Shown here in pieces: positions 5,401 to 35,736 of a stretch of DNA of 64,000 nucleotides (positions are counted from its first letter, which is position 1; each line of letters opens with the position of its first letter). Both the position numbers and the translations under genes were made by a program. Origin of the DNA: Caulobacterales bacterium (GTDB taxonomy: Bacteria; Pseudomonadota; Alphaproteobacteria; Caulobacterales; Caulobacteraceae); NCBI GenBank assembly GCA_038203295.1, contig JBBREC010000001.1, positions 11,699 to 75,698 on the forward strand, read 5' to 3'. The notes below the pieces were generated by a model, which searched no databases, was not told the DNA's origin, and worked only from the letters and a program-made list of their open reading frames with translations.

Positions 5401-5662
5401 GGGGCCCTCGGCGCGAACCCTGCCATGTTTTTGAGCATCTGGGCGCCCAGTACAGCTCTTGGATGGAGGCTTGGGGGGCCCGGCCACAGGGTCCATCGGT
5501 TCAACGGCACAGGCGACACGAGCCTAACTGCATCGCGGACGGCCCGCTCGGCCCCTCAGCCGGGGATGACAGACTTCATTTCACCACACAGGGTTGGGAC
5601 CGTCGGCATAAGGGAGTCGTAGGGTGCAGGAGGCGCGACGCCCGCCGCACACGCCGGCGCCG

Positions 5663-6760
5663 TCAGGTGAGCCAGATCACCCCGGCGAGGACGAGGCCGC
5701 CGATCCAGAGGGTCTCGGCGACCATAACCGCCACCGGCCGCCAGCCCGCGGCGATCAGGGCCTTGAAGGTGGTTTTCATGCCCAGCGCCGCGATGGCCAC
5801 CACCAGGCACCAGCGGGAAAGCTCGTTTGCCGCGGCGACAGCGGGTTTCGGCAGGAAGCCCAGGCTATTTATCGCCACCAGGGCCGCGAACCCCAGCAGG
5901 AACATCGGGATCGGCACTTTGGCGGCGGGCTGGCCGGCCCTGCCGCGCGACATGATGAAGGCGATCGACAGCACCACCGGCAGCAGCATCGCCACCCTGA
6001 GCAGCTTGACGTAGGTGGCCACGTCGCCGGTCTGCGGCGAGATCATATAACCGGCCCCCACCACCTGGGCGACGTCGTGGATCGTGCCGCCGAGGAAGAG
6101 GCCGGCCCGCTGGTGATCGAGGCCGAGCGCCGTCACCAGCATCGGGTAGAGGATCATCGCGATGGTCGAGAGCGTGGTGACCACCACCACGGCCAGGATC
6201 ACGTCGCGCTCGGTGTCCTTCGTCTTCGGCAGCACCGAGGCGATAGCGAGCGCCGCCGAGGCGCCGCAGATGCCGACCGACCCGCCCGACAGCAGGCCGA
6301 ACTCACGGCTCAGGCCCAGCATCCGCGCCAGCAGGTAGCCGACGCTGATCGTTGTGACGATCCCCACCACCACCAGCGCGATCGGCATGACCCCCAGGTC
6401 GGCCATCTGCGCCACGGTGATCCGCGCGCCCAGCAGGGCGACGCCGGTCCGCAGCACCGCCTTGGACGCAAACTCGATGCCGGGGATGCAGCGGCCTTCC
6501 TCGTGCAGGAAGTGGAAGGTCATGCCGAACAAGAGCGCGAACAGCATCACCGGGGCGGCGTAATGCTGCGACAGCCAGGTCGCCGCCAGCGCGATGGTCA
6601 GCGCCGCCAGCACCCCCGGATAGACCCTGAGCGCGAAAGCCTGGGCCGTCAGCCTGGGCCGAACCGAGACGGCCGGAAGCCCTTCCATCCCGTCGAACGA
6701 CTGGAACATCTCATGGGCCGCCGCGGCGTCCGTATCGATATCCCTGATGCCGCTCGTCAC
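5663..6760 (-). CDS. YeiH/UPF0324 family putative sulfate exporter-type membrane protein
   Basis: Polytopic membrane protein with ...LLFGMTFHFL...KAVLRTGVALLGARITVAQM... typical of the YeiH family. Confidence 0.82.
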   Translation of the reverse strand: MTSGIRDIDTDAAAAHEMFQSFDGMEGLPAVSVRPRLTAQAFALRVYPGVLAALTIALAATWLSQHYAAPVMLFALLFGMTFHFLHEEGRCIPGIEFASKAVLRTGVALLGARITVAQMADLGVMPIALVVVGIVTTISVGYLLARMLGLSREFGLLSGGSVGICGASAALAIASVLPKTKDTERDVILAVVVVTTLSTIAMILYPMLVTALGLDHQRAGLFLGGTIHDVAQVVGAGYMISPQTGDVATYVKLLRVAMLLPVVLSIAFIMSRGRAGQPAAKVPIPMFLLGFAALVAINSLGFLPKPAVAAANELSRWCLVVAIAALGMKTTFKALIAAGWRPVAVMVAETLWIGGLVLAGVIWLT

Positions 6761-6840
6761 GATGAGATCATGCCTTGCTGTGGGGTTGATGGGATGTCCC
6801 CGCCGGCCCCAGGCCGACGGGGATCGCCCGTTCCGTTTGT

Positions 6841-9087
6841 CTAGAACTTCAAGTTGCCGGTGATGCCGAAGTAGCGGTCGGCCTCGCGGGGGATCAGGTA
6901 GCGATAGCTGCCGCCGGGTCCGCCGCTGGTGATCGCCGAGGCGAAGCTGTTGTCGAACAGGTTCTTGACCTGGACTGTGACCCGATAGCGGTCGTTCGGA
7001 TCGACGATGCCGGCGGACAGGTCAACCAGGCTGTAGCCGTCGATCTTCGTGTTGATCCGGTTGGCGAGCACGGCGTCCGGCTGGCTGATCTGGCTGGACT
7101 GGAACGAGGCCTGGCCGCCCAGCGACACGTCCACGACCTTGCCGGTGCGGATACGGTAGTCGACGCCCAGCGAGCCTTTCCACTTCGGCGCATAGGCCAA
7201 AGTCGTGCCCGAGGGGATAACGCCGGTGTTGTTGCCGTTGGTGGGGATCTTGAACTTCTCGACCTTGGCGTCGGTATAGGCCAGGCCGCCGGAGATGTTC
7301 ATGTCGGCCATCGGCCGGAAAATCAGGTCGAGTTCGCCGCCGCGAGTGGAGATCGTGCCGGCGTTGGTGAAGCGGGTCACCAGCACCCCGGCCACCGTGT
7401 CGGGGTTGTTGGCCTGGAAGTTATGGTACTTCGCGTAATAGGCCGCGAGGTTGAGGATCAGGCGGTTTTCGAAGAGCGTGTTCTTTAGGCCCACTTCGTA
7501 GCTGTCGGCGGTTTCCGGCTCGATGATATTCGTGCCGGTCGCGGTCAGGTTGAAGAAGACGTTATAGGCCGGGCCTTTGTAGCCGCGCGAGTAGGTCGCG
7601 TAGAGGGTCGACTCCGGGACGATATCGAACTGCGCCCCGGCCTTGCCCGACCAGTTGTCGTTGGAGGTGCTGCTGGCGAACGGCCCGAAGCTCGGCTGGA
7701 TGCCGGGGCCCGCGAGCGTCGTGGTGCGCGAATGGAAGACCGCCAGCTTGTCGGCGGTGTAGCGCAGGCCCGCGATCAGGCGGAACCGCTCGCTGATGTT
7801 GACCGTGCCCTGACCGAAGACCGCGAAGTTCTTGAAGGTCGAGCCAAAGTCGGCCGTGCCGGCGGGCGTTGTGATGACAGCGCCTGCGGCGGTGCAGGGG
7901 GTTAGCACCGTGGGCGCCGGCGACAGGGTGCAGACGATGTCGTTACGAGTGAAGATCCGCTCGGTATGGGCGCGCGAGTAATAGGCGCCGGCGACGTAGG
8001 TGAAGAACTGGTTGGTCGGCGAGGCGACACGTACTTCTTGGGTGAGTGTGTTGCTGGTCTGCGGGCCGCGGTCGTGCAGCTGGTTGAGCCCCACATAGGC
8101 GCGCGGCAGCCAGTCGCCGTCGCGGATCTCGGTGTTGTCGTACTCGCGATAAGAGCCCACGTAGGTGAAGGTGTAGTCCCCTCGCGTCCAGTCGGCCTGC
8201 AGCGAGAGTCCGCCGCTTTTTTCGATGGTCGAGGTGACCAGGTCCTGGTTGACCTCGCGCGTCTTGTCGCCACGCGGCGTCGGCAGGGCGCCGGCGGCGA
8301 GGTTGGTGGGCAGGGTCCCGATCAACTCGGCGCAGCAGTCGTCATCGCTTTTGCGGTAGTCCGCGATGACTGTGAGCTGCAGGTCGGGGGTCGGGTCCGC
8401 CACCAAGATGCCACGCACACCGTAGTGCTCATAGCCGTTGACCCGCTTGCCGTTGGCGAGATTGCGGATGTTGCCGTCGTACCGGCCATAGAAGGCGGTG
8501 ACGCGGCTCTTGACGTTGTCGGCCAGGGGCAGGTCGACAGCGCCGCGCAGGCGGTACTCGTTGCCGTGCGTGTAGAAGCCGCCTTCGAGGAAGCCGCCCA
8601 TCACGTCGCCCGGACGCTTGGTGACGATGTTGATCACGCCGGCCGAGGTGTTCTTGCCGAACAGCGTGCCCTGCGGACCGCGGAGCACTTCCAGCCGGTC
8701 GATGTCGACCAGGTCGCTGAACGCCTCGCCGGCGCGGCTGTAGACGACACCATCCACCACCGTGGAGATCGAAGGCTCGCCGGCGATCGAGAAGGTCGAG
8801 GTGCCCACGCCGCGCAGGAACAGCGACTGGTTGATCGTGGTGCCCGACTTGCGGAAGTTGAGCGAGGGCACGAGGTACTGCGCGCCCTCGAGATTGACCG
8901 CGCCCTTGGCGGCGATCATCTCGCCGGATACCACCGAGACGGCCACCGGCACGTCCTGCAGTTTTTCCGACCGCTTCTGGGCGGTGACGACGATCTCGCT
9001 GAGATCGGCCGTCTCGGCCGCGCGGGCCGCCTGGGTCGACATCATCGCCAGGGCGCTGGCGCCGACGATCAAGAGTTTCCTGCTCAT
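6841..9087 (-). CDS. TonB-dependent receptor
   Basis: Signal peptide (MSTQAARA), TonB-box/plug start LSEIVVTAQKRSEKLQDVPVAVSVVSG, barrel sequence, and C-terminal YFGITGNLKF. Confidence 0.93.
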   Translation of the reverse strand: MSRKLLIVGASALAMMSTQAARAAETADLSEIVVTAQKRSEKLQDVPVAVSVVSGEMIAAKGAVNLEGAQYLVPSLNFRKSGTTINQSLFLRGVGTSTFSIAGEPSISTVVDGVVYSRAGEAFSDLVDIDRLEVLRGPQGTLFGKNTSAGVINIVTKRPGDVMGGFLEGGFYTHGNEYRLRGAVDLPLADNVKSRVTAFYGRYDGNIRNLANGKRVNGYEHYGVRGILVADPTPDLQLTVIADYRKSDDDCCAELIGTLPTNLAAGALPTPRGDKTREVNQDLVTSTIEKSGGLSLQADWTRGDYTFTYVGSYREYDNTEIRDGDWLPRAYVGLNQLHDRGPQTSNTLTQEVRVASPTNQFFTYVAGAYYSRAHTERIFTRNDIVCTLSPAPTVLTPCTAAGAVITTPAGTADFGSTFKNFAVFGQGTVNISERFRLIAGLRYTADKLAVFHSRTTTLAGPGIQPSFGPFASSTSNDNWSGKAGAQFDIVPESTLYATYSRGYKGPAYNVFFNLTATGTNIIEPETADSYEVGLKNTLFENRLILNLAAYYAKYHNFQANNPDTVAGVLVTRFTNAGTISTRGGELDLIFRPMADMNISGGLAYTDAKVEKFKIPTNGNNTGVIPSGTTLAYAPKWKGSLGVDYRIRTGKVVDVSLGGQASFQSSQISQPDAVLANRINTKIDGYSLVDLSAGIVDPNDRYRVTVQVKNLFDNSFASAITSGGPGGSYRYLIPREADRYFGITGNLKF

Positions 9088-9174
9088 ATTTCCCCCTGTT
9101 GATTTCCGGCCTCAGGATTCGGTCCCGGGATAGGGACGCCCAAGCCGACCATTGGTGTACGCAATTGAATTCGC

Positions 9175-10263
9175 TTAGAACCCGAGCTCCTGAAGGGTCA
9201 CCACGCGGCGTTCGCGCGCGCTGATCTCAGCGGCCGTGCCGATGGCCACGGCCATCAGTCCATCGCGGGCGGTCACCTCGACGGCGCCGACGCCCCGGAC
9301 CGCGGCGTTGAACTTCTGGTGCTGGTAGAAGGTTGAGCCGTGGTGGCTGCCGGCGTTCAGCGCCGTGGGATCGACCCCGACCGTGCGCCGCTCGACCTGC
9401 TTTGGATTGCGGAAGCCGACGCGAGGCGAATAGACGATCTCGCCCGAGGGGATCAGCACGTCGAGGCGCGCCGCGTCGCCGACGGCGGTAATCTCTTCCT
9501 GGTTCTCCGCCCCGTCGGCGAACATCGACAGGTCCAGCATGGCCCGCACGCCATTGGCGAAATCGACGGTCGTGTAGCTGTTGTCGATGATGTCAGGCCG
9601 CTGGCCATCGTAGCGCTCGTCGAGGTGGTTCACGTCCATGGCGCCGGAGCAGTAGACCCGCACGGCCTCGGAGCGGGTGATCAGCCGCATAAGGTCGAAG
9701 AAGTGGCAGCACTTTTCGACCATGGTCCCGCCGCTGTTGCGGCTGAACCGGTTCCAGTCGCCGACCTTTTCAAGGAAGGGGAAGCGATGCTCGCGGATCG
9801 ACAGCATGCGCAGCTGGCCCACCCGGCCGCCGTGGACCTCGTCGATGAACTCGGCCGCCGGCGGCATATAGCGGTATTCCATGGCCGTCCAGAACGGCGC
9901 GCCGGACTTCGCGGCGTGATCGACGACCCAGCGGGCGTCGTCAAGCCTGGTGGCCAGCGGCTTTTCGCAGAGGATCGGCAGGCCGGCGTCGAACAGCGGC
10001 TCGAGCACCTTTCGATGCGTGAAGTTCGGGCTGGCCACGATGACCGCGTCGACGAGACCGCTGCGGGCCAGGGCCGCGCCGTCGGCAAACGCCTGGACGC
10101 CTTCGGCCGCCGCGCCCAGGGCCTTGCGGGCCCAGCCCAGCGAGGTCTCCACCGGATCGGCAAGCGCCGTCACCACCGCGCCAGGGGTCACGGCGAGGTT
10201 GTTGATGTGCTCAACCCCCATCATGCCCGTGCCCACCAGGCCGTAGCGCACCGTATCCGACAA
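9175..10263 (-). CDS. Gfo/Idh/MocA family oxidoreductase
   Basis: Rossmann start VRYGLVGTGMMGVEHINN, and EKPLA and GGTMVEKCCHFFDL motifs. The start is probably TTG at 10263 (GGAGGA 5-6 nt upstream) or GTG at 10251. The ORF-track start at 10341 adds a non-homologous extension. Confidence 0.85.
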   Translation of the reverse strand: MSDTVRYGLVGTGMMGVEHINNLAVTPGAVVTALADPVETSLGWARKALGAAAEGVQAFADGAALARSGLVDAVIVASPNFTHRKVLEPLFDAGLPILCEKPLATRLDDARWVVDHAAKSGAPFWTAMEYRYMPPAAEFIDEVHGGRVGQLRMLSIREHRFPFLEKVGDWNRFSRNSGGTMVEKCCHFFDLMRLITRSEAVRVYCSGAMDVNHLDERYDGQRPDIIDNSYTTVDFANGVRAMLDLSMFADGAENQEEITAVGDAARLDVLIPSGEIVYSPRVGFRNPKQVERRTVGVDPTALNAGSHHGSTFYQHQKFNAAVRGVGAVEVTARDGLMAVAIGTAAEISARERRVVTLQELGF

Positions 10264-10284
10264 ATTTTCCTCCGCGAGCGTCTT

Positions 10285-10300
10285 ATGACAGCGCTGACTT
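10285..10300. promoter_or_regulatory. LacI/GalR-type operator candidate (ATGACAGCGCTGACTT)
   Basis: Imperfect 16-bp palindrome with a central AGCGCT, located in the divergent Gfo-oxidoreductase/MFS intergenic region. 17 of 22 positions match the second site at 14030-14045 when flanks are included. Confidence 0.45.
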
Positions 10301-10589
10301 ATCCGAGCTTTCCCCCGAAGGCCGGCGGCGGGCAAGTCCAAAGTCGGTGCGGAGACTGTTTGAAAGCCTCACTGTGGCTTCGCGGCAATTGGCACGTTCC
10401 GATCAAGCCTCCGTTTTCATATGGAGAATCGTTTTTCCCGGCTCCGGCGCGGCGCATAGAGCGCGTCCGGCCCTGATGTCCCATCCGCGGTCCGCGGGAT
10501 TTGCTTTGCCACGCCGACTCTGACGTCGTTATGTCTCATTGGGCGGGGCTGGACAGCCGTCGTGAACCGGAGGGAGGCGCAACTTCCCC

Positions 10590-11891
10590 TTGAGTTCGAC
10601 GCCCGGCAGGGGAGGCAAGGGCTTGTCACAGAGCGAAACGCACGGTCCGGGGTTCAACCGATGGCTTTTGTTCGCGCTGCTCACGATCGCCGGTATCCTG
10701 GCGCTGGTCGATCGCCAGATCATTTCTGTCCTTAAGCCGACAATCGCCGGCGAACTGGGCTGGTCCGATAACGACTACGGCACGCTCGGCGCGTCCTTCC
10801 AGGGCGCGACGGCCATCGCGCTTCTGTTCACGGGCCCGCTGGCGGACCGGCTTGGGGTGAAGTGGGCCAATGCCTTCGGCGTTTTCACCTGGAGCGTGGC
10901 GGCGCTGTTCCACGGCTGGGCGAGGTCGCTCGTCGAGTTCACAATGTGCCGCGTGGCCCTGGGCGCCACTGAGGCCCTGGCCGCGCCCACCAACATCAAG
11001 ACCATCGCGGTGATCTTCCCGCCCAACATGCGATCGATGGGCTTTGGACTTTCGAATGCCGTGGCCAGCCTTGGGGCAATCTGCGCGCCGATCTTCATTC
11101 CGGTGATCGCGCTGGCGATCGGCTGGCGCGGCGCCTTCGTGGCGGCCGGCGCGGCCGGCATCGTCTGGGCGGCGGTCTGGGTGCTGGTCACCCGCAAGAT
11201 CCGTTTCAACGACTCGGTGGCGGCTGTCGCGCCAGGCGCCGCGGGCGCGGGCCCCTCGATCTTCCGCGACCGGGCGACCTGGGCCGTGGCCGGCGCCAAA
11301 ACGCTGAGCGACTCGACCTGGTGGCTGATGCTGTTCTGGATGCCCGACTTCATGCACCGCCAGTTCGGCCTGTCCGGTGTCGCCATCGGTCCGCCGCTGG
11401 CCCTGGCCTACACGGGCGCGGCCATCGGCGCGCTGCTGAGCGGCGGTCTGGCCAGCCGGTTCCTGATCCGGGGCCATCCGGTCAACCGGGTGCGCAAGAT
11501 CGCCATGCTGGTGAGTGGCCTGCTGGTGCTGCCCCTGCCGCTTGCCCTTTACGCACCGACGGCCTGGGTCGCTGCGGGCGTGCTGGCGCTGGTGCTGTTC
11601 GCCCACCAGGGGTTCTCGACCAACCTCTTCGCCCTGATCACCGACACCACCGACCGGCGAAAGATCGGCCGGGTGACCAGCTTCGCCACCTTCTGCGGCA
11701 ACATCGGCGGCATGGGCATCGTCAAGGCGGCGGGCATGTTCCTGGTGGCCGGCCTCGGCTACATGCCGCTCTTCCTGTTCGCCGCGGTGTCCTATCTGCT
11801 GGCCCTGGGATGGATCCAGCTGTGGCTGCCCCGTATCGAGCGGATCGCGGGTTCAGACGAAGAGCCCGTGGTGGCCGTCGCCGCCCACTAG
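10590..11891 (+). CDS. MFS transporter, anion:cation symporter (hexuronate/galactonate ExuT-like) family
   Basis: N-terminus RWLLFALLTIAGILALVDRQIISVLKPTIAGELGWSDNDYG is typical of ACS-family sugar-acid transporters, with 12 TM-like segments. The start may be TTG at 10623 (GGGGAGG upstream) rather than 10590. Confidence 0.85.
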   Translation: MSSTPGRGGKGLSQSETHGPGFNRWLLFALLTIAGILALVDRQIISVLKPTIAGELGWSDNDYGTLGASFQGATAIALLFTGPLADRLGVKWANAFGVFTWSVAALFHGWARSLVEFTMCRVALGATEALAAPTNIKTIAVIFPPNMRSMGFGLSNAVASLGAICAPIFIPVIALAIGWRGAFVAAGAAGIVWAAVWVLVTRKIRFNDSVAAVAPGAAGAGPSIFRDRATWAVAGAKTLSDSTWWLMLFWMPDFMHRQFGLSGVAIGPPLALAYTGAAIGALLSGGLASRFLIRGHPVNRVRKIAMLVSGLLVLPLPLALYAPTAWVAAGVLALVLFAHQGFSTNLFALITDTTDRRKIGRVTSFATFCGNIGGMGIVKAAGMFLVAGLGYMPLFLFAAVSYLLALGWIQLWLPRIERIAGSDEEPVVAVAAH

Positions 11892-12956
11892 CTAGACCAG
11901 CGGGCCGTGCTCGATGTTCGGCAGGACGTGGCGGGCGAACAGGTCGGCCTCGGCGGCATGCGGGTAGCCGGACAGGATGAAGGCCTCGATGCCCATGTCG
12001 CGGTAGTCATTAAGCTTCGCCAGCACCTGATCCGGATCGCCGACGATGGCGGCGCCGCAGCCTGAGCGGGCGCGACCGACGCCGGTCCAGAGGTTGGCTT
12101 CCGCATAGCCATCATCCGACGCGCTCTCGCGCAGCGCCACCTGGGCCTGCACGCCGGCCGAAGTGGAATCGAGGGACTTGGCCTTGATCGCTGCGCCGGT
12201 GGCGTCATCCAGCTTGGAGAGCAGCCGGTCCGCGGCGGCGCGGGCCTCGGCCTCGGTGTCGCGCACGATCATGTGGGCGCGATAGCCGTAGCGCAGGGTG
12301 CGACCATGCCGGGCGGCGCGGGCGGTCATGTCGGCGATGATGTCGGCCACCACCTCCTTCTTGTCCGGCCACATGAGGAAGACGTCGCAGCCCTTGGCGG
12401 CGGCCTCGCGGGCGTCTTCGGACAGGCCGCCAAAGTAGAGCAGGGGGGCCTTTCCCGAGACGGTCTTCACCCGCGGCGGGTCGATCTTCAGCTGCCAGGC
12501 GTCGCCCTGGTGGTCGAGGCTCTCGCCGTTGAGCATGGCCTTCAGGATCAGCATGGCCTCGAGCGTGCGGCCGTAGCGCGGCGCGGACGCCAGCTTCTGG
12601 CCGGGCATGTCGGAGGAGATGATGTTGATGGTCAGCCTGCCGCCCAGCATCTGGTCGATGGTGGCGATCTGGCGGGCCAGCTGCGGCGGCCACATTTCGC
12701 CGATGCGGATGGCCATCAGCAGGCGCATGCGCTTCAGCATCGGGGCGATGCCGGCGGCGAAGGCGGTGGTGTCGATGCCGAGCTCATAGCCCGAAGGAAG
12801 CAGGATGTTGTCGAACCCGCCGGCCTCGGCCTGCAGGACGATATCGCGGCAATGCTCCCAGCTTGAGCGCAGCATCGGGTCCGGCACGCCCAGGAACTCG
12901 TAGTCGTCGTCGCAGAGCGCGGAGAACCAGCTGATCTCGCAGGGCGGCCGGGTCAT
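11892..12956 (-). CDS. LLM-class FMNH2-dependent monooxygenase, SsuD (alkanesulfonate monooxygenase)-like
   Basis: Collinear with SsuD as I recall it: ISWFSAL..DDYEFLG, PLLYFGG, RYGYRAHMIVRDTEAEA, NLWTGVGRARSGCGAAIVGD, ILSGYPH. The start ATG at 12956 overlaps the upstream AKR stop (ATGA). Confidence 0.85.
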   Translation of the reverse strand: MTRPPCEISWFSALCDDDYEFLGVPDPMLRSSWEHCRDIVLQAEAGGFDNILLPSGYELGIDTTAFAAGIAPMLKRMRLLMAIRIGEMWPPQLARQIATIDQMLGGRLTINIISSDMPGQKLASAPRYGRTLEAMLILKAMLNGESLDHQGDAWQLKIDPPRVKTVSGKAPLLYFGGLSEDAREAAAKGCDVFLMWPDKKEVVADIIADMTARAARHGRTLRYGYRAHMIVRDTEAEARAAADRLLSKLDDATGAAIKAKSLDSTSAGVQAQVALRESASDDGYAEANLWTGVGRARSGCGAAIVGDPDQVLAKLNDYRDMGIEAFILSGYPHAAEADLFARHVLPNIEHGPLV

Positions 12957-13870
12957 GGCAGGGGCTCTCCCATCGATGCGGTCAGGACCGCGTACCACTC
13001 GGGTCGGGTCCATACGGGTTTGAAGGCGTCCGGAATCTCGGCGATGCGGGCCAGCGTCTGGGTGCCCACGATCGGGATCGGCCGCGCTGGGTGGGCCATG
13101 ATCCAGCTGTAGGCCGCCGCCGCGCGGGAAACGCCGCAGGCCTCGGCCTTGACGTCCAGGGTCTGGGCCACGGCGCGGGAGCGGTCGTCCTTCGGATCGC
13201 CGAGCCGCCCGCCGCCAAGCGGCGACCAGGCGAGCACGGCCATGCCGCGGGCCAGCGCCTGGTCGAGCACGCCGTTTGTAAGCGGCGCGATGGCCAGGGG
13301 CGAGAACTCCGGCTGGCAGCTGACGATCGGCAGCGGCAGGTGGGCGGCCAGGGCCTCAACCTGCTGCGGGGTAAAGTTGGACACGCCCACCGCGCCGATC
13401 TTACCGGCTCTGTGCGCCGCGACGAGCGCCTCCGCCGTGTCGGCCGGATGGGCGAACATGTCGGGCCGGTGGATCTGCCACAGCGCCACATGGTCGAGGC
13501 CCAGACGCGTCAGCGAGGCGTCGATGGCGCTGGCGATGTAGCCCGGACTGGAATCATAGGGCGTGCCGATGACGATGCCGCCCTTGGTGGCGAGCACCAT
13601 GCGGGCGGCCAGGCCGGGGGCCTGGGCCAACACCCGGCCCAGCAGCGCCTCGGCGGCGCCGAAGGCCTCGCCATTATCGGGGCCGTAGATGTCGGCGGTG
13701 TCGAACAGGGTGACGCCGGCGTCGAGCGCGGCCTCCACCCGGGCCTGGGCAGCGGCGACGTCGTCGCCGGCGAAGCGCCACATCCCCCAGGCGATCGAGG
13801 AAACCATGGGACCGCCGGCATAGAGCGGGCGGTTGCGAGGCGTTTGCTGAGGAGATGTCATCGCTGTCAT
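12953..13870 (-). CDS. aldo/keto reductase
   Basis: FDTADIYG, LATKGG, LDHVALWQIHRPD, GAVGVSNF and LAWSPLGGG motifs. Start is ATG at 13870 or 13861; the ORF-track start at 13927 is an extension. Confidence 0.87.
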   Translation of the reverse strand: MTAMTSPQQTPRNRPLYAGGPMVSSIAWGMWRFAGDDVAAAQARVEAALDAGVTLFDTADIYGPDNGEAFGAAEALLGRVLAQAPGLAARMVLATKGGIVIGTPYDSSPGYIASAIDASLTRLGLDHVALWQIHRPDMFAHPADTAEALVAAHRAGKIGAVGVSNFTPQQVEALAAHLPLPIVSCQPEFSPLAIAPLTNGVLDQALARGMAVLAWSPLGGGRLGDPKDDRSRAVAQTLDVKAEACGVSRAAAAYSWIMAHPARPIPIVGTQTLARIAEIPDAFKPVWTRPEWYAVLTASMGEPLP

Positions 13871-14029
13871 GCTAGCCACTGGCCAGCGCCATGGCAACGT
13901 CCACCCGGCCCAGACCGGTTTCGTCACCGCAATCGGTGTTTCGGTAATGAATTCATATAGCCTGCGGCCTGTCGACGCCGCGCGGGTCGGGCGCGGCGGA
14001 GCGATCCCCGGCCTTTCCGGCGGCAGTAC

Positions 14030-14045
14030 ATGATAGCGCTGTCAT
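14030..14045. promoter_or_regulatory. LacI/GalR-type operator candidate (ATGATAGCGCTGTCAT)
   Basis: Half-sites match at 7 of 8 positions around the AGCGCT centre. Lies about 160 nt upstream of the AKR-monooxygenase operon and just downstream of the lacI-family gene. Confidence 0.5.
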
Positions 14046-14068
14046 ATCCTATGGCAGGCGCGTGGGGC

Positions 14069-15073
14069 TTAGTCCGCCCGCGGGGCCGCCGTAGAGGCGC
14101 GCAGTACGAGCTCATGTGGCAGCCGGCGGTGAACCGCCTCCTGGTCGCCGTCGAACAGCAGGCTGGCGGCGGCGTAGGCCAGCTCGCGGGTCGGCTGGCG
14201 TACGGTAGTGAGCGGGGGCCAGAGCTGGCTGGCCAGCGGCGTGTCGTCGAAGCCGGCGACCGAGAGGTCCCGGGGAAGGGTCATGCCGCGCCGGTGGGCA
14301 ACGGTGAGCACCCCGGCCGCCATGTCGTCATTGCTGGCGAAGATCGCCGTCGGAGGCTGGGGCAGGTCCAGCAGCACGTCCGCCGCCGCTTCGCCCGAGG
14401 TGAAATCGAATTCGCCCGGCCGCACGTACTTCGGTTCGAATGGCAGGCCGGCCCGGTCAAGGGCTCGGCGGTAGCCGAACAGCCGCTGGTCGCTGGCGGT
14501 GTGGTTGCTGTGGCCGATGATAAAGCCAATCCGTTTGTGTCCAAGCGAGATCAGGTGGCTGGTCATGTCGTCGGCGGCCTGAACGTCGTCCATGGCCACG
14601 GAAGAGCTGCGCCCGTGCTCCGTGCCGGGCGAGATCCGCACATAGGGAATCTGCCGCCGCTCGAGTTCGTCCAGCGCGGCGACCGCATCAGTTACGGGTG
14701 ACGACAGAATCACGCCGTCGACCTGGGTCTGGTCGATCAGCCCCCCGACTTCCTGGGCCAGACGCATCGAGGCCGCGTCGGTGGGCTGGGCCAGCAGCCG
14801 GACGCCTTCTTCCACGCAGCGGGCCCAGACGCCGGTCTGGATCTGGTGGATGTAATGCGGGCTGTGATTGTCGTAGATCAGGGCGATCTGGAAGCTGCGC
14901 TTGCCGGCCAGGGTGCGGGCGGCGGCGCTGGGTTGGAAATTCAGCTGCGCGACGGCGCGCTCGACGCGCTGGCGGGTCTCGGCGGAGACATAGCGCTCCT
15001 TGTTCAGGACCCGCGAGACGGTCTTGGTCGAAACGCGCGCGATCTCCGACACGTCCTTGATCGTCGCCCGCAT
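14069..15073 (-). CDS. LacI family transcriptional regulator
   Basis: HTH start MRATIKDVSEIARVSTKTVSRVLNKERYVSAETRQRV, followed by a periplasmic-binding-protein-like sugar-binding fold. Confidence 0.92.
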   Translation of the reverse strand: MRATIKDVSEIARVSTKTVSRVLNKERYVSAETRQRVERAVAQLNFQPSAAARTLAGKRSFQIALIYDNHSPHYIHQIQTGVWARCVEEGVRLLAQPTDAASMRLAQEVGGLIDQTQVDGVILSSPVTDAVAALDELERRQIPYVRISPGTEHGRSSSVAMDDVQAADDMTSHLISLGHKRIGFIIGHSNHTASDQRLFGYRRALDRAGLPFEPKYVRPGEFDFTSGEAAADVLLDLPQPPTAIFASNDDMAAGVLTVAHRRGMTLPRDLSVAGFDDTPLASQLWPPLTTVRQPTRELAYAAASLLFDGDQEAVHRRLPHELVLRASTAAPRAD

Positions 15074-15487: not shown

Positions 15488-15501
15488 CTGATCTGGCTCA
15501 A
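15488..15501. promoter_or_regulatory. FNR/FixK-like box candidate (CTGATCTGGCTCAA)
   Basis: Matches TTGA-N6-TCAA at 7 of 8 specified positions, 51 nt upstream of the USP start codon. Confidence 0.3.
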
Positions 15502-15551
15502 TGAGGCTGGTGCAGACGCAGTATCATGGTCTCTCACACCCGGAGCCCCTC

Positions 15552-16400
15552 ATGACCTATGTCGACGCCTTGCTGCATATCGACAGCTACCCGACCCCGA
15601 CAACCGCAGACGCCATCGACGAGGCCATCGCCCTGGCGGCGAGCCTTGGCAGTCGGCTGACCGCCCTGGCGATCGAGGTCGATATTCCCGTTCGCAGCAA
15701 TCGCCTGGCCGACTACCTCATTGGCCTCGGCGCGATGGCCGATGAGGAAGAAGCCAAGAGCCGGGCGGCCTGTCGCGACGGCCTGGCGGCATTTGCGCGA
15801 GGCGCCGACGCGGCTGGGATTGAGCACGCGTCGGTCCTCACACGAGTCAACCACTATGGAGTGGGCGATCAGGTCGCCCGGGTGGCGCGGACCTATGATC
15901 TTTGCCTCCTACCGCTGATGGGCGAGTTCGACAGTCAGGTCGAGGTGGCGCAGGCCGTTGTCTTCAGTTCTGGTCGGCCAGTCCTGATTTTCCGCAAAGG
16001 AGAGACCTTGGGTCTCGCGAACGGTCCCGATCTGGTGGTGATCGCCTGGGATGGCGGCGGCAATGCCGCCCGCGCAATGGCGGACGCCATGCCGATCCTG
16101 ACCCGCGCCAGGCGGGTGCGTCTGCTGACCATCCTGAATGACAAGCCGGCCGCCACGGCGGCCCTTGGCCTCGACGCCCAGCGGCATCTCCGCGCTCATG
16201 GCATCGAAGCTGAACTGGCGAGCGTGGATCGCGACGGGCCCGAGATCGGCAAGACCCTGGACCGATACATCGCGCGGCACGCGCCCGATCTGCTGGTCAT
16301 GGGCGCCTATGGTCACTCCCGGGCCCGCGAATTCCTGCTGGGCGGGGCCACCGAGCACACGCTCAATAATTCTTGCTGCCCGGTGCTCCTCTCGCATTGA
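15552..16400 (+). CDS. universal stress protein (tandem USP domains)
   Basis: About 280 aa with two USP-like halves, the second ending DLLVMGAYGHSRAREFLLGGATEHTLNNSCCPVLLSH. The start is taken at MTYVDALLHID. Confidence 0.85.
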   Translation: MTYVDALLHIDSYPTPTTADAIDEAIALAASLGSRLTALAIEVDIPVRSNRLADYLIGLGAMADEEEAKSRAACRDGLAAFARGADAAGIEHASVLTRVNHYGVGDQVARVARTYDLCLLPLMGEFDSQVEVAQAVVFSSGRPVLIFRKGETLGLANGPDLVVIAWDGGGNAARAMADAMPILTRARRVRLLTILNDKPAATAALGLDAQRHLRAHGIEAELASVDRDGPEIGKTLDRYIARHAPDLLVMGAYGHSRAREFLLGGATEHTLNNSCCPVLLSH

Positions 16401-16446
16401 CCGGTTCGGATCGTACGCATCGCCGTAACCGTATTGGATCTGGCCC

Positions 16447-18999
16447 ATGGAAACCCTAGCTCGAAACGGACTTAGCCAAGCTGAAGCCGACCGGCGCCTG
16501 GCGACCGTCGGGCCCAATGAGCTGCCCGCATCGACGGATCGCGGCATATTTCGCATCGCCTTCGAGACCATGCGCGAGCCGATGTTCCTACTGCTCATCG
16601 GCGCGGCGGCGCTCTACCTCGTTCTGGGCGATCTCGGCGAAGGCCTGTTCCTGATGGGCGGCGCGCTGGCCACGATCGGCCTTGTCGTGCTGCAGGAGGC
16701 GCGCAGTGAGAAGGCGCTGGCCGCCCTGCGGGACCTGTCGCAGCCTCATGCACGGGTGATCCGCGACGGGGCCGAGCGCTCAGTCGCGGCCCGCGAGCTT
16801 GTGCCTGGCGATATTGTCCTGGTCGGGGAAGGGGAGCGACTTCCGGCCGACGGCGTGCTGACCGCCGGCGACGTTCTCAGCGTCGATGAATCCGCCCTGA
16901 CGGGCGAGTCGGCGCCGGTCTCCAAGCGGCCGGTATTGCCCGACGAGACGCCGGATCCCGACGCGCCGCCGGGCGCCGACTCTGGACCGCACCTGTTCTC
17001 CGGCACACTGATCGTGCGCGGCCAGGCCGTCGCCCAGGTCAACCGGACCGGACCGCGCACCGCGCTCGGCAAGATCGGAGTCTCCCTGGCGGCGATCACC
17101 CAGGAACCGACGCCGCTTCAAAAGACGGCCGGCCGGCTCGTTACTTGGCTGGGCGCGTTTGCGCTGATGTTCTGCGCCCTTGTCGCCGTCGCCTACGGCC
17201 TGCTGCGCGGCGATTGGGTGAACGGCGCCCTGGCCGGAATCACTGTCGCCATCGCTCTGATCCCGGAAGAGTTCCCGATGGTGCTGGCAGTGTTCCTGGC
17301 GCTCGGCGCCTGGCGGCTGGCCACGCATCAGGTTCTGGTCCGGCGCAGCGCGGTGATCGAGGCGTTGGGCGGCGCGACGGTGCTGTGCGTCGACAAGACC
17401 GGGACCCTGACCGAGAACCAGATGCAGGTCGCCCGGCTGTGGACCGACGGCGCAGATGTCGCCGTGACGGCCGACGAGGCGCTGGCGCCGCCTGCCCGCG
17501 CCCTCCTCGTCACCGCGGGGCTCGCATCGGCCGTGCGTCCGGTCGACCCGATGGACAAGGCCGTGCGCGGTCTGCTGGAGACCGGAAGCCCCGGCGAGAC
17601 GCCAACCCTCGAGGAGCCGGAACGGGCTTGGCCGTTGCGCCCCGACCTGATGGCGGTCATCCAGGTCTGGCCGCAGACCGAGGGCGCCCGGCTGGCGGGC
17701 GCCAAGGGCGCGCCGGAAGCCATCTTCCGGCTCTGCAAGCTGCCCGCAGCCGACATTGAACGGCTGACCGCTGTGGTCGGCGCCTACGCCGAGCGGGGAC
17801 TTCGGGTGCTGGGCGTGGCGTCGAGCCGGGTTCCCGGCCCGTTTCCGGAAGATCCTGAAACCGCGCCCTTTGTGTTCACGGGTTTTGTAGGATTTCTCGA
17901 CCCCGTACGTAAGGATGTACCCGCTGCTCTGAAGGAGGCCCAGGCCGCGGGGATCTCCGTGGTCATGATCACCGGCGACCATCCTGCCACCGCCCTGGCG
18001 ATCGCCAGAACGGCCGGGATCGACACGTCGGGCGGGGTGTTGCTGGGGTCCGAACTGGCCGCTTTGTCGCCGCAGGATCTCGCGGCCCGGCTACAGGGCG
18101 TGCGGGTGTTCGCCAGGATCATCCCCGAGCAGAAACTGCTGATTGTCCAGGGGCTCAAGGCGGCCGGCGAAGTGGTCGCCATGACCGGCGACGGAGTCAA
18201 CGACGCGCCCGCCCTTGAAACGGCCCACATCGGCATCGCCATGGGCAGGAAGGGCACCGACGTCGCGCGTGAGGCCGCGGACCTCGTGCTCATGGACGAC
18301 AGCTTCGCCTCCATCGTCGGCGGCGTACGTCTGGGTCGGCGCATCTTCGTCAATCTGCGCAAGGCTCTGATCTACGTCACTGCGATCCACGTACCGATCG
18401 CCGGGCTGGCGCTGATCCCCATCGTGCTTGGCCTGCCGCAGCTGCTCTTCCCGATGCATGTGGTCTTCCTGGAGCTGGTCATCGATCCGGTGTGCGCGAT
18501 GGTCTTCGAGGCTGAGCCCGGCGGCGCGAGCGCCATGCAACGACCGCCACGACGGCGCGACGAGGCGCTGTTCGGACCGGCCCAACTGGGGTTGGCGCTC
18601 CTGCAGGGGACCGGTGTGCTGGTCGGGGTTTTCTTCATCTATGTCTGGTCGCTGAGCCACTACCCGGAGGGAGAAGCGCGAGGCGCGGCGTTCCTGGCCC
18701 TGGTCGTCGGGAACCTGGTCTTGGCGCTGGCCGATGCATCTTCCACGGGTGGACGGCTGTTCGCGCCCCACCGCAAAATCTACTGGATCATCTCCGCGGC
18801 CGCAGGCGGAATCCTCACGCTGGTGCTGACGGTTCCGCTGTTTTCCAGCCTCTTCAAGGTGATCCCGCCAGACCTTCCGCTGCTGAGTCTTGCGCTTGGC
18901 GTGGCCGGTGTGAGCGGAGGCTGGTTTGGCGTCGTAAGGAGCCTCCGGGGCCTGCTGCAGCGCAGCCAGACGAACGCCGCCCGCCTCAAGCCGTCATGA
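16447..18999 (+). CDS. cation-translocating P-type ATPase
   Basis: DKTGTLT phosphorylation site, TGES, MITGDHP and GDGVNDAPAL motifs, and N-terminus GLSQAEADRRLATVGPNELP. The TM4 motif is PEEFPMV rather than PEGLP. Confidence 0.93.
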   Translation: METLARNGLSQAEADRRLATVGPNELPASTDRGIFRIAFETMREPMFLLLIGAAALYLVLGDLGEGLFLMGGALATIGLVVLQEARSEKALAALRDLSQPHARVIRDGAERSVAARELVPGDIVLVGEGERLPADGVLTAGDVLSVDESALTGESAPVSKRPVLPDETPDPDAPPGADSGPHLFSGTLIVRGQAVAQVNRTGPRTALGKIGVSLAAITQEPTPLQKTAGRLVTWLGAFALMFCALVAVAYGLLRGDWVNGALAGITVAIALIPEEFPMVLAVFLALGAWRLATHQVLVRRSAVIEALGGATVLCVDKTGTLTENQMQVARLWTDGADVAVTADEALAPPARALLVTAGLASAVRPVDPMDKAVRGLLETGSPGETPTLEEPERAWPLRPDLMAVIQVWPQTEGARLAGAKGAPEAIFRLCKLPAADIERLTAVVGAYAERGLRVLGVASSRVPGPFPEDPETAPFVFTGFVGFLDPVRKDVPAALKEAQAAGISVVMITGDHPATALAIARTAGIDTSGGVLLGSELAALSPQDLAARLQGVRVFARIIPEQKLLIVQGLKAAGEVVAMTGDGVNDAPALETAHIGIAMGRKGTDVAREAADLVLMDDSFASIVGGVRLGRRIFVNLRKALIYVTAIHVPIAGLALIPIVLGLPQLLFPMHVVFLELVIDPVCAMVFEAEPGGASAMQRPPRRRDEALFGPAQLGLALLQGTGVLVGVFFIYVWSLSHYPEGEARGAAFLALVVGNLVLALADASSTGGRLFAPHRKIYWIISAAAGGILTLVLTVPLFSSLFKVIPPDLPLLSLALGVAGVSGGWFGVVRSLRGLLQRSQTNAARLKPS

Positions 19000-19009
19000 C
19001 CTCAATCAA
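18996..19009. promoter_or_regulatory. FNR/FixK-like box candidate (ATGACCTCAATCAA)
   Basis: Matches TTGA-N6-TCAA at 7 of 8 positions. Overlaps the ATPase stop codon and lies about 110 nt upstream of the cupin gene. Confidence 0.3.
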
Positions 19010-19117
19010 GGACAAGCCTGAGAAACAAGCCGTTCATCAACCGAGCAGGCGCGGGCCGGCGCACTCAATCTCGTCAGGCCGCCGCACCGGTGAACGTCGC
19101 CAACTGAGGAGAATTCC

Positions 19118-19570
19118 ATGAAGGGTTTTGTCGAGGATATCGAGGATCTCACCTTGGAGAACGCTGCGTTCCGGCGCGTGCTCTACACCGGCAAGCATCT
19201 GCAGCTGGTGCTGATGGCGCTGAAGCCGGATGAAGAGATCGGCGCCGAGACCCATGTCGGCCACGATCAGTTCTTCCGGGTTGAAAAGGGCAAGGGCGAG
19301 GTCTGGATCGACGGTGAGCGCACCAAGATCAAGCGCGACGACGCGATCATCGTGCCGGCCGGGGCCAGCCACAACATCGTCAATACGGGCGCCAAGTCGC
19401 TCAAGCTCTACACGCTGTATGCGCCGCCGCAGCATCACGACGGCGTCGTGCGGGCGACCAAGGCAGACGCAGCCGCCACCGAAGAGCACTTCGATGGCAA
19501 GACGACGGAATCGGCCACGCCGGCCAAATCAGCGAGCCCGCGTGGCGCCCATGCGAAGCCCGGCGCCTGA
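19118..19570 (+). CDS. cupin domain protein
   Basis: GAETHVGHDQFFRVEKGKGEVWIDGE...IIVPAGASHNIVNTG is the classic two-motif cupin core. GAGGAG RBS upstream. Confidence 0.8.
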   Translation: MKGFVEDIEDLTLENAAFRRVLYTGKHLQLVLMALKPDEEIGAETHVGHDQFFRVEKGKGEVWIDGERTKIKRDDAIIVPAGASHNIVNTGAKSLKLYTLYAPPQHHDGVVRATKADAAATEEHFDGKTTESATPAKSASPRGAHAKPGA

Positions 19571-19698
19571 GGCTGAGCGCGTCCGACTTCGGCGCGCCCA
19601 TTCCGTTGGCGCAGCAAGGCTGATCCGGCGTGACTTACCGGGCTGGAAGCCCGACCGTGCCGGTACGTCGCACTCGGGAAGGGTCACGCCCGCATCGC

Positions 19699-20982
19699 AT
19701 GCCGTCCGCTGACACTGCGTCCTTCCTGAGCCGGCCGGAATGGCCGCTGCTCGTTGCGCTGGCGATCGGCTTGCTGATCGGTCTCGAGCGCGAGCGCCGC
19801 AAAGGGGAGGGGCCATCGCGCTCTCCTGCCGGCCTTCGCACCTTTGCACTCGTCAGCCTGCTCGGCGGCATCACAGCTCTGATTGGCAATACGGCCCTGG
19901 TCGCGATGGCCGGCGCCTTTGTCGCGCTGGGCGCGCTGACGGCCTATGTCATCGGCGACCGCAAGGATCCCGGATTGACGGGGGAGGTCGCGCTCGTGGC
20001 CACCTTTGCCCTGGGCGTTCTAGCTCAGACCCGACCGGCCCTGGCCTTCGAGAGCGCCGTCGTGATCGCCGCTCTGCTGGCCTTTCGGGTGCAGTTACAT
20101 GCCTTCGTCCGCAAACGGATCACGGACCAGGAACTGCTCGACGCGCTCACCTTCGCGATCGCGGCGGTTGTCATTCTACCACTTCTGCCCAACCGCGCCG
20201 TCGATCCCTTCGGGCTGCTGAACCCATTCACACTCTGGCGCCTGGCGGTCGTGGCGATGGCGCTCAGCTTCATGGGCTATGTCGCCCAGCGACTGCTCGG
20301 CGGACGCAACGGATTGCTGGTGGCCGGGCTGGCTGCGGGGCTGGTCTCGAGCACGGCGGCCGTCGCGGCCATGGGCGCGCGATCCAAAGCCCATCCGGAG
20401 CTGGCCGCGGCGAGCGCATCCGGCGCGGTCGCCTCGATGATCGGAAGCCTGGGCTACCTCGCGGCCATCATCGGCGCGGTCAGTCCGAAACTCGTCTGGA
20501 CCCTGGCGATCCCCCTAACGTCCGCGGCCGTCCTGATGCTTGCCTATGCCGTCTGGTTGGTGCGCCGCACACCCAGGGCCACAGCAAAATCGGAAACCAT
20601 CGGCAGGGCCTTCAACCCCGTGGCCGTGCTGACCTTCGTCGGCCTCGTTGGCAGCTTCAGCATTGCGTCCGAACTGCTGATCCGGTGGCTTGGCTCTACG
20701 GGCGCGATGGCTGGCGCCGCCGTAATGGGCCTTGCCGACGCGCACGCCGCCTCGGTGTCGATGGCGACCCTCACAGAAGGCGGCAGACTGGCCGTGCAGG
20801 CCGCCGCTATCGGCGTTATCCTGACCCTGAGCACCAACATGGCGGTGAAGATTCCGACGGCGTTTGCGACTGGGAGCAGGGCCTACGCGCGCCTGGTCTC
20901 TTTCGGGGTCGCCATCCTCCTCATTGGGCTCTGGCTTGGGGCCTGGGCCGTCGTCTACGCAAACCCGGGGATGTTCCCATGA
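19699..20982 (+). CDS. MgtC/SapB family membrane protein with DUF4010-like extension
   Basis: LLVALAIGLLIGLERERRKGEG....AGLRTFALVSLLGG is the MgtC signature, followed by a long polytopic C-terminal part. The start is taken at ATG 19699. Confidence 0.8.
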   Translation: MPSADTASFLSRPEWPLLVALAIGLLIGLERERRKGEGPSRSPAGLRTFALVSLLGGITALIGNTALVAMAGAFVALGALTAYVIGDRKDPGLTGEVALVATFALGVLAQTRPALAFESAVVIAALLAFRVQLHAFVRKRITDQELLDALTFAIAAVVILPLLPNRAVDPFGLLNPFTLWRLAVVAMALSFMGYVAQRLLGGRNGLLVAGLAAGLVSSTAAVAAMGARSKAHPELAAASASGAVASMIGSLGYLAAIIGAVSPKLVWTLAIPLTSAAVLMLAYAVWLVRRTPRATAKSETIGRAFNPVAVLTFVGLVGSFSIASELLIRWLGSTGAMAGAAVMGLADAHAASVSMATLTEGGRLAVQAAAIGVILTLSTNMAVKIPTAFATGSRAYARLVSFGVAILLIGLWLGAWAVVYANPGMFP

Positions 20983-25759: not shown

Positions 25760-25777
25760 GGACAGGCGACCGCGTTG

Positions 25778-25798
25778 TATTATACGTTTCGTCAATAA
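25778..25798 (-). promoter_or_regulatory. AT-rich promoter/operator motif, copy C (TTATTGACG-aaacg-TATAATA)
   Basis: Read on the minus strand, with the -10-like TATAAT 19 nt upstream of the acyl-CoA dehydrogenase ATG. Same architecture as copies at 35707-35729 and 37354-37376. Confidence 0.4.
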
Positions 25799-25832
25799 GA
25801 ACGTCCGAGCGCATCGGTCAAGGGAGGATGAG

Positions 25833-32895: not shown

Positions 32896-32904
32896 AGAGC
32901 GCCG

Positions 32905-33699: not shown

Positions 33700-33724
33700 G
33701 ATCCGCGTTTCGGTGGCGCCGCGC

Positions 33725-34690: not shown

Positions 34691-34712
34691 GTCGCGCTCC
34701 CCGGCGGCGGGT

Positions 34713-35675: not shown

Positions 35676-35706
35676 ATTCGAGCTCCCGATGCGATGCCCT
35701 CAGACC

Positions 35707-35736
35707 TATTATAATAACCGTCAATAACTAACTCAA
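35707..35736 (-). promoter_or_regulatory. sigma70-like promoter (TTGAGT-N17-TATAAT) containing motif copy A (AGTTATTGACG-gttat-TATAATA)
   Basis: Sharp AT-rich island in a GC-rich background. The -10 lies at 35708-35713 and the -35 at 35731-35736, 32 nt upstream of the PhyH ATG. Confidence 0.45.

Follow-up and report, generated by a model that had tools for sequence, protein, structure and literature searches.

Gene organization of the locus

We analyzed a stretch of 64,000 nucleotides from a Caulobacteraceae genome (contig JBBREC010000001.1), which is called the window below, and we focused on a locus of seven genes at positions 5663-15073 that has a putative role in the utilization of sulfoquinovose (SQ), a sulfonated sugar of plants. 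The GC content of the window is about 67%. Open reading frames were chosen by their GC content at third codon positions (GC3), and protein families were assigned by scanning Pfam and NCBIfam profiles. Six of the genes lie on the minus strand. They encode a YeiH-type membrane protein (5663-6760; PF03601, UPF0324), which is a putative sulfite/sulfate exporter; a TonB-dependent outer-membrane receptor with Plug and beta-barrel domains (6841-9087); a homologue of the GH188 sulfoquinovosidase SqgA with the Gfo/Idh/MocA fold (9175-10263; PF01408 and PF02894); an LLM-class monooxygenase of the SmoC/SquD type (11892-12956; Pfam Bac_luciferase); an aldo/keto reductase (AKR) resembling SmoB/SquF (12953-13861; PF00248); and a LacI-family regulator that consists of a LacI helix-turn-helix and a periplasmic-binding-protein-like domain (14069-15073). 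The seventh gene, on the plus strand (10590-11891; MFS_1), encodes a major facilitator superfamily (MFS) transporter of the anion:cation-symporter type that resembles DgoT; its start codon is uncertain. The gene families that an earlier note on this DNA had named in the locus were all recovered by the Pfam and NCBIfam scans. The YeiH-type gene had been missed in that note.

The start codon of sqgA is most likely the TTG at 10263, which gives a protein of 362 residues and lies behind a conserved GGAGGA-N6; an earlier version of this open reading frame extended to 10341. For the AKR gene, the conserved ATG at 13861 (302 residues) is preferred. The ATG at 13870, which began the earlier open reading frame, was rejected because it falls within the conserved -10 hexamer TAGCAT, and the ATG at 13807 was rejected because it is not kept in relatives. 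An open reading frame at 5624-6844 on the plus strand was without family matches, and the YeiH-type gene on the opposite strand was preferred to it on GC3 and Pfam. As the earlier note had described, the AKR and monooxygenase genes share an ATGA stop/start overlap, which is seen at 12953-12956. The MFS gene and smoC converge and have their last bases at 11891 and 11892, with zero intergenic bases and without a terminator-like structure, so that an overlap of the two transcripts at their 3' ends is expected.

The monooxygenase

The translated monooxygenase was compared with proteins of solved structure. The best match was SmoC of Agrobacterium tumefaciens (AtSmoC, 7OLF; 399 bits), with which it shares 56% identity over 346 residues, and the next was SmoC of Rhizobium oryzae (RoSmoC, 7OH2; 390 bits). 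The same search gave 221 bits for MsuD, 195 bits for SsuD, 86 bits for SfnG and about 30 bits for nitrilotriacetate-type enzymes. That is, SmoC is the closest among the groups with which the earlier note had proposed to compare this protein. A grouping with F420-type LLM enzymes, which that note had considered, was not seen, the F420 LLM models scoring 43 bits or less. The peptides ISWFSAL, LYFGG, RYGYRAHMIVRDTEAEA, NLWTGVG and ILSGYPH, quoted there in the comparison with SsuD, are all found in the translation.

Residues W196, R226, H228, Y331 and H333 of the monooxygenase correspond to W206, R236, H238, Y341 and H343 of SmoC. These five SmoC residues (Trp206, Arg236, His238, Tyr341 and His343) were proposed for SQ recognition by Sharma et al. 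2022 (PMC8795539), who also assigned the PDB codes 7OLF and 7OH2 and showed the SQ specificity of SmoC.

One genome per species was scanned for SmoC relatives. Such relatives were present in at least 596 genomes, and the 80 closest, mostly from Caulobacteraceae and Sphingomonadales, were kept. The survey counts given below, unless they refer to all 80, were taken from the 46 loci among them that are flanked by at least 8 kb on either side.

The enzyme might instead be a general alkanesulfonate monooxygenase of the SsuD/MsuD type that serves sulfur scavenging and lies in a sugar locus by chance. The Bac_luciferase match in Pfam, the best NCBIfam models, which are SsuD families, and the label 'alkanesulfonate monooxygenase' that JGI gives to homologues would all suit such an enzyme. 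In contrast, the SsuD equivalog model (NCBIfam TIGR03565) scored 243.6 bits, which is below its cutoff of 518.2, and the SsuD structure scored about half of what SmoC did. The locus has no ssuE or ssuABC, and its regulator is of the LacI family. In addition, an AKR gene adjoins smoC in 75 of the 80 loci, and in 43 of the 46 smoC is linked to a sulfoquinovosidase gene of either the GH31 or the GH188 family. We therefore consider it very unlikely that the enzyme is an SsuD/MsuD-type monooxygenase for sulfur scavenging. E. coli SsuD/SsuE and Pseudomonas MsuD resemble the window enzyme in the LLM TIM-barrel fold and in the FMNH2/O2 chemistry of C-S cleavage; they differ from it in the scores given above (195-221 bits versus 399 for SmoC), and the window gene differs in its carbon-catabolic context as well as in its regulator and the lack of ssuE/ssuABC. 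The results support the assignment of the protein as a SmoC-type SQ monooxygenase rather than as an SsuD for sulfur scavenging, with an activity predicted from homology.

The aldo/keto reductase

Among solved structures, the AKR was most similar to SmoB (7BBY/7BBZ; 164 bits, 38% identity), while YdhF-type AKRs scored 138-142 bits. The catalytic Asp, Tyr, Lys and His residues and the Arg beside the His are present as D54, Y59, K93, H131 and R132. Of these, Y59, H131 and R132 are the equivalents of Tyr76, His151 and Arg152, which contact glucose in SmoB. The comparison with SmoB that the earlier note had put forward thus came out in favor of SmoB as the best solved relative of this ATGA-coupled protein, and the proposal that the LLM/AKR pair forms a SmoC/SmoB-type core of the sulfo-SMO pathway is upheld. 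In one 2026 genome survey, the joint presence of SmoB and SmoC is the criterion for calling a genome sulfo-SMO-positive; homologues of both are encoded here.

The sulfoquinovosidase homologue

The Gfo/Idh/MocA protein showed its best matches to FlSqgA (8QC2/8QC8; 375 bits, E 3e-111, 49% identity), ArSqgA (8QC3/5/6; 365 bits) and RdSqgA (8ZN9; 341 bits), three sulfoquinovosidases that have been characterized by experiment, and the next match was at 74 bits. FlSqgA and ArSqgA are the founding members of GH188, a family of NAD+-dependent sulfoquinovosidases that act by transient C3 oxidation and accept alpha as well as beta glycosides (Kaur et al. 2023, PMC10755693); RdSqgA is from Roseobacter denitrificans (PMC12780224). 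All nine catalytic and sulfonate-binding residues are kept in the window protein (K101, Y130, E158, R160, L164, K166, E183, H187 and H307). Specifically, Lys107, Tyr136, His193, His321 and Glu189 of ArSqgA correspond to K101, Y130, H187, H307 and E183, and its sulfonate triad of Arg166, Leu170 and Lys172 corresponds to R160, L164 and K166. The "Gfo oxidoreductase" of the earlier note is a homologue of the GH188 sulfoquinovosidase SqgA and would, by homology, have the same activity. Thus, the claim that a sulfoquinovosidase is missing does not hold, since the cluster carries a protein that scores 341-375 bits against SqgA enzymes and keeps all nine residues. The sulfoquinovosidase that Sharma et al. 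2022 take as a criterion for such a cluster is represented here by this GH188 homologue.

We also considered an ordinary sugar-acid or inositol locus, in which the Gfo protein would be a dehydrogenase, the AKR a sugar reductase and the LLM protein a non-sulfonate oxidoreductase, for example of the F420 type. Inositol 2-dehydrogenase is indeed the best NCBIfam model for the Gfo protein, and the MFS protein resembles a galactonate transporter. The score of that model, 114 bits, is far below its cutoff of 355, and dehydrogenases among the solved structures reach no more than 74 bits where the SqgA enzymes reach at least 341. The low scores of the F420 models stand against this explanation too, as does the mutual exclusion of the Gfo protein and the GH31 sulfoquinovosidase across 43 loci. 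An ordinary sugar-acid locus is therefore the least probable of the explanations that we weighed, and we give it almost no credence.

Uptake, export and flavin reductase

The TonB receptor has a signal peptide, after which comes SEIVVTA. With the receptor of a related Phenylobacterium locus (L002) it shares 76% identity, and with that of a Caulobacter cluster of the GH31 type 41%. A proteomic precedent exists in Alteromonas macleodii, in which one TonB receptor was up 107-fold on SQ. The best matches of the MFS protein were the D-galactonate transporter subfamily TIGR00893 (135 bits) and DgoT (6E9N; 100 bits), and the protein is therefore anion:cation-symporter-like, as the earlier note had said. 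It is 69% identical to the MFS protein of L002. Their conserved linkage with the cluster gives both proteins a putative role in uptake: the TonB receptor would import sulfoquinovosyl glycerol (SQGro) or SQ, and the MFS protein would carry SQ or SQGro across the inner membrane. The uptake genes are wired differently from those of Agrobacterium, as had been pointed out before: a TonB receptor and an MFS transporter are found in place of an ABC importer. Non-ABC transporters are already known in smo clusters (Sharma et al. 2022, PMC8795539).

The YeiH-type protein matched PF03601 with 241 bits and the NCBIfam model TIGR00698 (YeiH family putative sulfate export transporter) with 157 bits, short of the cutoff of 232.6. 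A gene with 75% identity is located at the same position in L002. TauZ and SuyZ, both putative sulfate exporters, belong to the YeiH family. On the family name, the linkage and this kinship, the protein may export sulfite or sulfate, and its gene would be the last of a unit composed of sqgA, the TonB receptor gene and yeiH.

No tblastn match to GH31 or to FMN reductase was found in the 64 kb window, and none of about 55 scanned open reading frames of the window matched Pfam FMN_red (PF03358), Flavin_Reduct (PF01613) or sulfonate-ABC genes. These searches bear out the statement of the earlier note that the window has no ssuE, ssuABC, GH31 or flavin reductase. A flavin reductase within the cluster is not obligatory, because the cluster of Novosphingobium aromaticivorans and 31 of the 46 related loci are without one. 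Clusters without SsuE, such as that of N. aromaticivorans, are presumed to draw on other cellular flavin reductases (review, PMC9594981).

The LacI regulator and its operators

The LacI protein is 81-86% identical to the regulators of the related loci L001 and L002. Three 16-bp palindromes related to ATGACAGCGCTGTCAT are present in the locus, and elsewhere in the window there are none at that stringency. They are the near-perfect palindrome ATGACAGCGCTATCAT at 14030-14045, ATGACAGCGATGACAT at 13855-13870, and AAGTCAGCGCTGTCAT at 10285-10300, in the divergent region between sqgA and the MFS gene. The LacI-type operators reported in the earlier note are therefore real, and their number is three instead of two. 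The palindrome search of the window gave six strand-matches against 0.24 expected, indicating that the sites are non-random. When we built a weight matrix from the sites of other genomes only, the three sites of the locus ranked first in the window; the site at 10285-10300 scored 27.6, the top value, and that at 14030-14045 scored 27.3. The former is located 21 nt upstream of the sqgA start and is conserved in L002. The only other moderate match to the matrix in the window was GTCTGACAGAGATGTCACGG at 43770-43789 (score 19.3). It precedes a sodium:dicarboxylate symporter gene (44082-45401) by about 300 bp and lies within the region 42001-44000, which has the lowest GC content of the window (0.61) and few convincing open reading frames.

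Only two promoter-like elements were found in 9.9 kb, and each overlaps an operator. The smoBC element, TTGCCA-17-TAGCAT on the minus strand, overlaps the operator at 13855-13870, and the two together occupy 13855-13897. The other, CTGCCA-16-TATCAT (14030-14057, minus strand), has its -10 hexamer inside the palindrome at 14030-14045. The block of promoter and operator in front of smoBC is conserved among the window, Phenylobacterium and Caulobacter henricii; the second element was not found in L001 or L002. In 29 related loci the operator palindrome coincides with the smoB start or closely precedes it, and its offset of -14 is identical in 24 of them. Gene starts adjoin 48 of the 61 motif matches in related loci (smoB 29, sqgA 7, TonB receptor 7, MFS 5). 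We infer from these positions that LacI represses smoBC and the unit of sqgA, the TonB receptor gene and yeiH, and that the inducer is SQ or an SQ glycoside. We found no description in the literature searched of the conserved LacI operator (TGACAGCGaTGTCA) at the smoBC promoter and upstream of sqgA, PMC10755693 not having been searched for LacI or operators, and one SQ review checked for the term does not mention LacI.

Related loci

Close homologues of the monooxygenase number in the thousands, and the named ones at 88-90% identity are from Caulobacter and Phenylobacterium. The Phenylobacterium genome of L002 contains the same seven genes in identical order, with protein identities of 69-89%. 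In C. henricii, SmoC and the AKR are 89% and 78% identical to those of the window, and the genes around them encode LacI, YeiH, a PF03358 FMN reductase, a TonB receptor, an MFS transporter and a GH31 protein. This GH31 protein matches SmoI, the sulfoquinovosidase of A. tumefaciens (5OHY/7OFX), with 1020 bits. The C. henricii cluster, with its SmoI-like GH31, thus links the SmoC/AKR lineage of the window to SQ by independent evidence.

In the 46 loci, the sulfoquinovosidase is SqgA in 30 and GH31 in 13; none has both, and three have neither. A SmoB/AKR gene is present in 45, MFS in 39, the TonB receptor in 38, LacI in 34, YeiH in 28 and an FMN reductase in 15. The architecture of the window, including the absence of a flavin reductase, is the commonest form among these loci. 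On a rough SmoC tree (neighbor-joining, no bootstrap), loci with GH31 and those with GH188 are interleaved, so that at least six switches are needed. The mutual exclusion in 43 loci together with this interleaving suggests repeated non-orthologous replacement of one module in a stable cluster.

Homologues of SmoC on Novosphingobium plasmids are 68-70% identical to the window SmoC. For this reason, the SmoC/AKR lineage of the window probably includes the assayed enzymes of N. aromaticivorans, a placement drawn from sequence identity. In N. pentaromativorans, genes for glycerol kinase and glycerol-3-phosphate dehydrogenase lie downstream of smoC, which fits a glycerol glycoside, that is SQGro, as the imported substrate. 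Just upstream of the cluster on its plasmid pLA3 (L084), a sulfotransferase gene and a second TonB receptor gene are found. Sulfo-SMO clusters are also carried by megaplasmids or chromids in several strains of Novosphingobium, Sphingomonas, Sphingobium, Rhizobium and the Roseobacter group.

Three of the surveyed loci (L059, L061 and L062) encode SmoC homologues of about 80% identity, and in each of them genes for an AKR, a GH31 enzyme and an MFS transporter lie next to it. Their assemblies are labeled Granulicella, Acidobacteriaceae and Bryocella, and one of them is a chromosome-level assembly of 4.8 Mb. The pathway is described in reviews as confined to Alpha- and Betaproteobacteria. These Acidobacteriota-labeled loci may represent horizontal transfer into that phylum, unless the assemblies are mislabeled.

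Proposed pathway and its weighing

Taken together, we are confident that the locus is a seven-gene cluster for sulfolytic SQ utilization of the sulfo-SMO/sulfo-ASMO type in a Caulobacteraceae (Phenylobacterium-like) genome. Homology, conserved residues, a conserved neighborhood and conserved operator sites carry this reading. The scheme that follows is a prediction from them as regards all enzyme activities, the substrates of the two transporters and the exporter, the inducer and the operon structure.

SQGro or SQ released from plant and algal sulfolipid would reach the periplasm by way of the TonB receptor and the cytoplasm by way of the anion-type MFS transporter. The aglycone would then be removed by the NAD+-dependent SqgA through transient C3 oxidation. 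SmoC, with FMNH2 and O2, would cleave the C-S bond to give 6-oxo-glucose and sulfite, and the translationally coupled AKR of the SmoB/SquF type would reduce 6-oxo-glucose to glucose. Sulfite or sulfate would leave the cell via the YeiH-type protein, and FMNH2 would be supplied by a flavin reductase encoded elsewhere in the genome. The LacI repressor would bind the 16-bp palindrome (consensus aTGACAGCGaTGTCA) in the -10/+1 region of the smoBC promoter and just upstream of sqgA, and it would be released by SQ or an SQ glycoside.

Several points weigh against this reading. The five-residue constellation of the monooxygenase may not tell SmoC from SsuD, because the earlier note gives ILSGYPH as a motif of E. 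coli SsuD as well. Between the window SmoC and the enzymes assayed from Agrobacterium and Rhizobium the identity is only 56%, and it falls below the 60% SmoC identity cutoff, relative to the Roseobacter enzyme, of one marine survey. The AKR, at 38% identity to SmoB, has a narrow margin over YdhF-type enzymes (164 versus 138-142 bits), and it is without the nine-residue loop that bears the glucose-contacting Lys120 of SmoB. This deletion is common to the cluster AKRs of Caulobacter, Sphingomonas and Novosphingobium; it is thus a trait of the Caulobacterales/Sphingomonadales lineage and not decay. The 49% identity of the SqgA homologue lies below the thresholds of about 53-54% in published networks and surveys, which are operational values set relative to other references and do not define the family. 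Without a flavin reductase in the window, the pathway as seen is incomplete. Finally, no operator above background was found by the weight matrix directly upstream of the MFS gene.

Some of these points would also suit the same machinery acting on another sulfonated sugar or glycoside, such as sulfofucose, a beta-linked SQ glycan or lyso-sulfolipid, with a shifted specificity of SmoC and the AKR in Caulobacterales and Sphingomonadales. The SmoC clade of the window and the assayed AtSmoC stand a long branch apart, the Lys120 loop is missing from the AKRs of this lineage, and GH188 enzymes cleave both alpha and beta glycosides. Moreover, the substrates of TonB receptors are usually larger than a monosaccharide. 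A different substrate is nevertheless unlikely, though of the three alternatives weighed here we would dismiss it least readily: the GH31 of sister clusters scores 1020 bits to the SQ-specific SmoI, the SQ-contacting residues of SqgA are all kept, including those that bind the C4-OH and the sulfonate, and the sulfo-ASMO pathway of N. aromaticivorans was characterized biochemically with SQ (review, PMC9594981).

Comparison with known systems

The smoA-I cluster of A. tumefaciens C58 (Sharma et al. 2022, PMC8795539) resembles the window locus in having SmoC (56% identity) beside an AKR that matches SmoB best among solved structures and in its series of glycoside import, hydrolysis, desulfonation, reduction to glucose and sulfite export. 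The two differ in how several of these steps are encoded. The window has a TonB receptor and an MFS transporter where A. tumefaciens has an ABC importer with the binding protein SmoF, and a GH188 SqgA where A. tumefaciens has the GH31 SmoI. The flavin reductase SmoA is not in the window cluster, which is further distinguished by its divergent AKR, its YeiH-type exporter and a LacI regulator with defined operators.

Closer in composition are the SqgA-type sulfo-SMO clusters. In Kaur et al. 2023 (PMC10755693), SqgA genes are reported in GH31-less sulfo-SMO clusters of Sphingomonas sp. Leaf17, Dinoroseobacter shibae and Mesorhizobium sp., the GH31 and SqgA families are described as having complementary distributions, and the GH188 family list already includes proteins of Phenylobacterium and many of Sphingomonas. 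There, as in the window, GH188 replaces GH31 in a SmoC/SmoB cluster and the residues are conserved; the window SqgA is only about 49% identical to the solved SqgA structures. The portions of the text and supplements of PMC10755693 covered here do not list the families of the TonB receptor (PF00593), the MFS transporter (PF07690) and PF03601. The Sphingomonadales cluster of N. aromaticivorans with SquD, SquF and YihQ, whose enzymes were assayed (Liu et al. 2021, as summarized in PMC9594981), is likewise without an SsuE-type flavin reductase, and it uses the GH31 enzyme YihQ where the window uses SqgA.

The suggestion of the earlier note that the locus may hold a new desulfonation route must be given up in view of these systems, since SqgA is present, GH31-less sulfo-SMO clusters of the SqgA type, including one from Sphingomonas, were published in 2023, and clusters without a flavin reductase or with non-ABC uptake are known. 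The locus varies a pathway known from work of 2021-2023 and common in soil and freshwater bacteria, and it brings no new chemistry to light. What goes beyond the literature consulted is incremental in every case: the conserved LacI operator, the regular presence of the TonB receptor and YeiH, and the repeated exchange of the sulfoquinovosidase.

These additions can be joined in one broader reading, to which we would give an even chance. The locus may be a conserved, self-contained sulfoquinovoside locus of Caulobacterales and Sphingomonadales, made up of the TonB receptor, MFS, a sulfoquinovosidase, SmoBC, YeiH and LacI. LacI would be an SQ/SQGro-sensing repressor of the sulfolytic SQ pathway with a 16-bp operator conserved across two orders, and the TonB receptor would be a dedicated importer of sulfonated glycosides, possibly of something larger than SQGro. 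Around a stable core, GH31 and GH188 would have replaced each other as the sulfoquinovosidase gene at least about six times. In the literature searched, we found no description of the LacI sensor and operator, the dedicated TonB importer or the swapping of the sulfoquinovosidase.

Surroundings of the locus

Upstream of lacI, a tandem-Usp-like gene (15501-16400) is followed by genes at 16447-20982 for a P-type cation ATPase, a cupin protein and an MgtC/DUF4010 membrane protein. Since the genes at 15501-20982 are not conserved beside the cluster in relatives, they mark the edge of the locus. Farther away, at 22230-24418 on the minus strand, an acetate kinase gene adjoins a phosphotransacetylase-like gene of the PTA_PTB family, and a long acyl-CoA dehydrogenase gene follows at 24581-26200.

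A second carbohydrate locus is located at 26775-42229. It contains genes for an SSF symporter, a GH36 alpha-galactosidase, a GH42 beta-galactosidase, a TetR regulator, an alpha/beta hydrolase, an AKR, a PhyH dioxygenase, a GPH-type MFS transporter, an IlvD/Edd dehydratase, an SDR, a 2-keto-3-deoxy-galactonokinase and a KDPG-type aldolase. This set looks like a pathway for galactosides and for galactose by the De Ley-Doudoroff route. We speculate that, with an SQ cluster nearby, the alpha- and beta-galactosidases would match the digalactosyl-glycerol headgroup of the other thylakoid lipids.

Meaning of the locus

The gains from this analysis are modest, namely a corrected annotation of the locus, a regulator with an operator motif for regulon searches, and a candidate outer-membrane receptor for sulfoquinovosides. 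In RefSeq, the proteins have generic names such as "LLM class flavin-dependent oxidoreductase", "Gfo/Idh/MocA family oxidoreductase" and "aldo/keto reductase", and with such public annotation the pathway is easily missed in surveys of genomes and metagenomes.

SQ is made at about ten billion tonnes a year (PMC10755693), and its breakdown gives sulfur and carbon back to the biosphere. The monooxygenase route that releases sulfite is widespread, as judged from SmoC relatives in at least 596 species-level genomes, and the 80 relatives closest to the window SmoC belong mostly to freshwater, soil and plant-associated groups, that is, Caulobacteraceae and Sphingomonadales.

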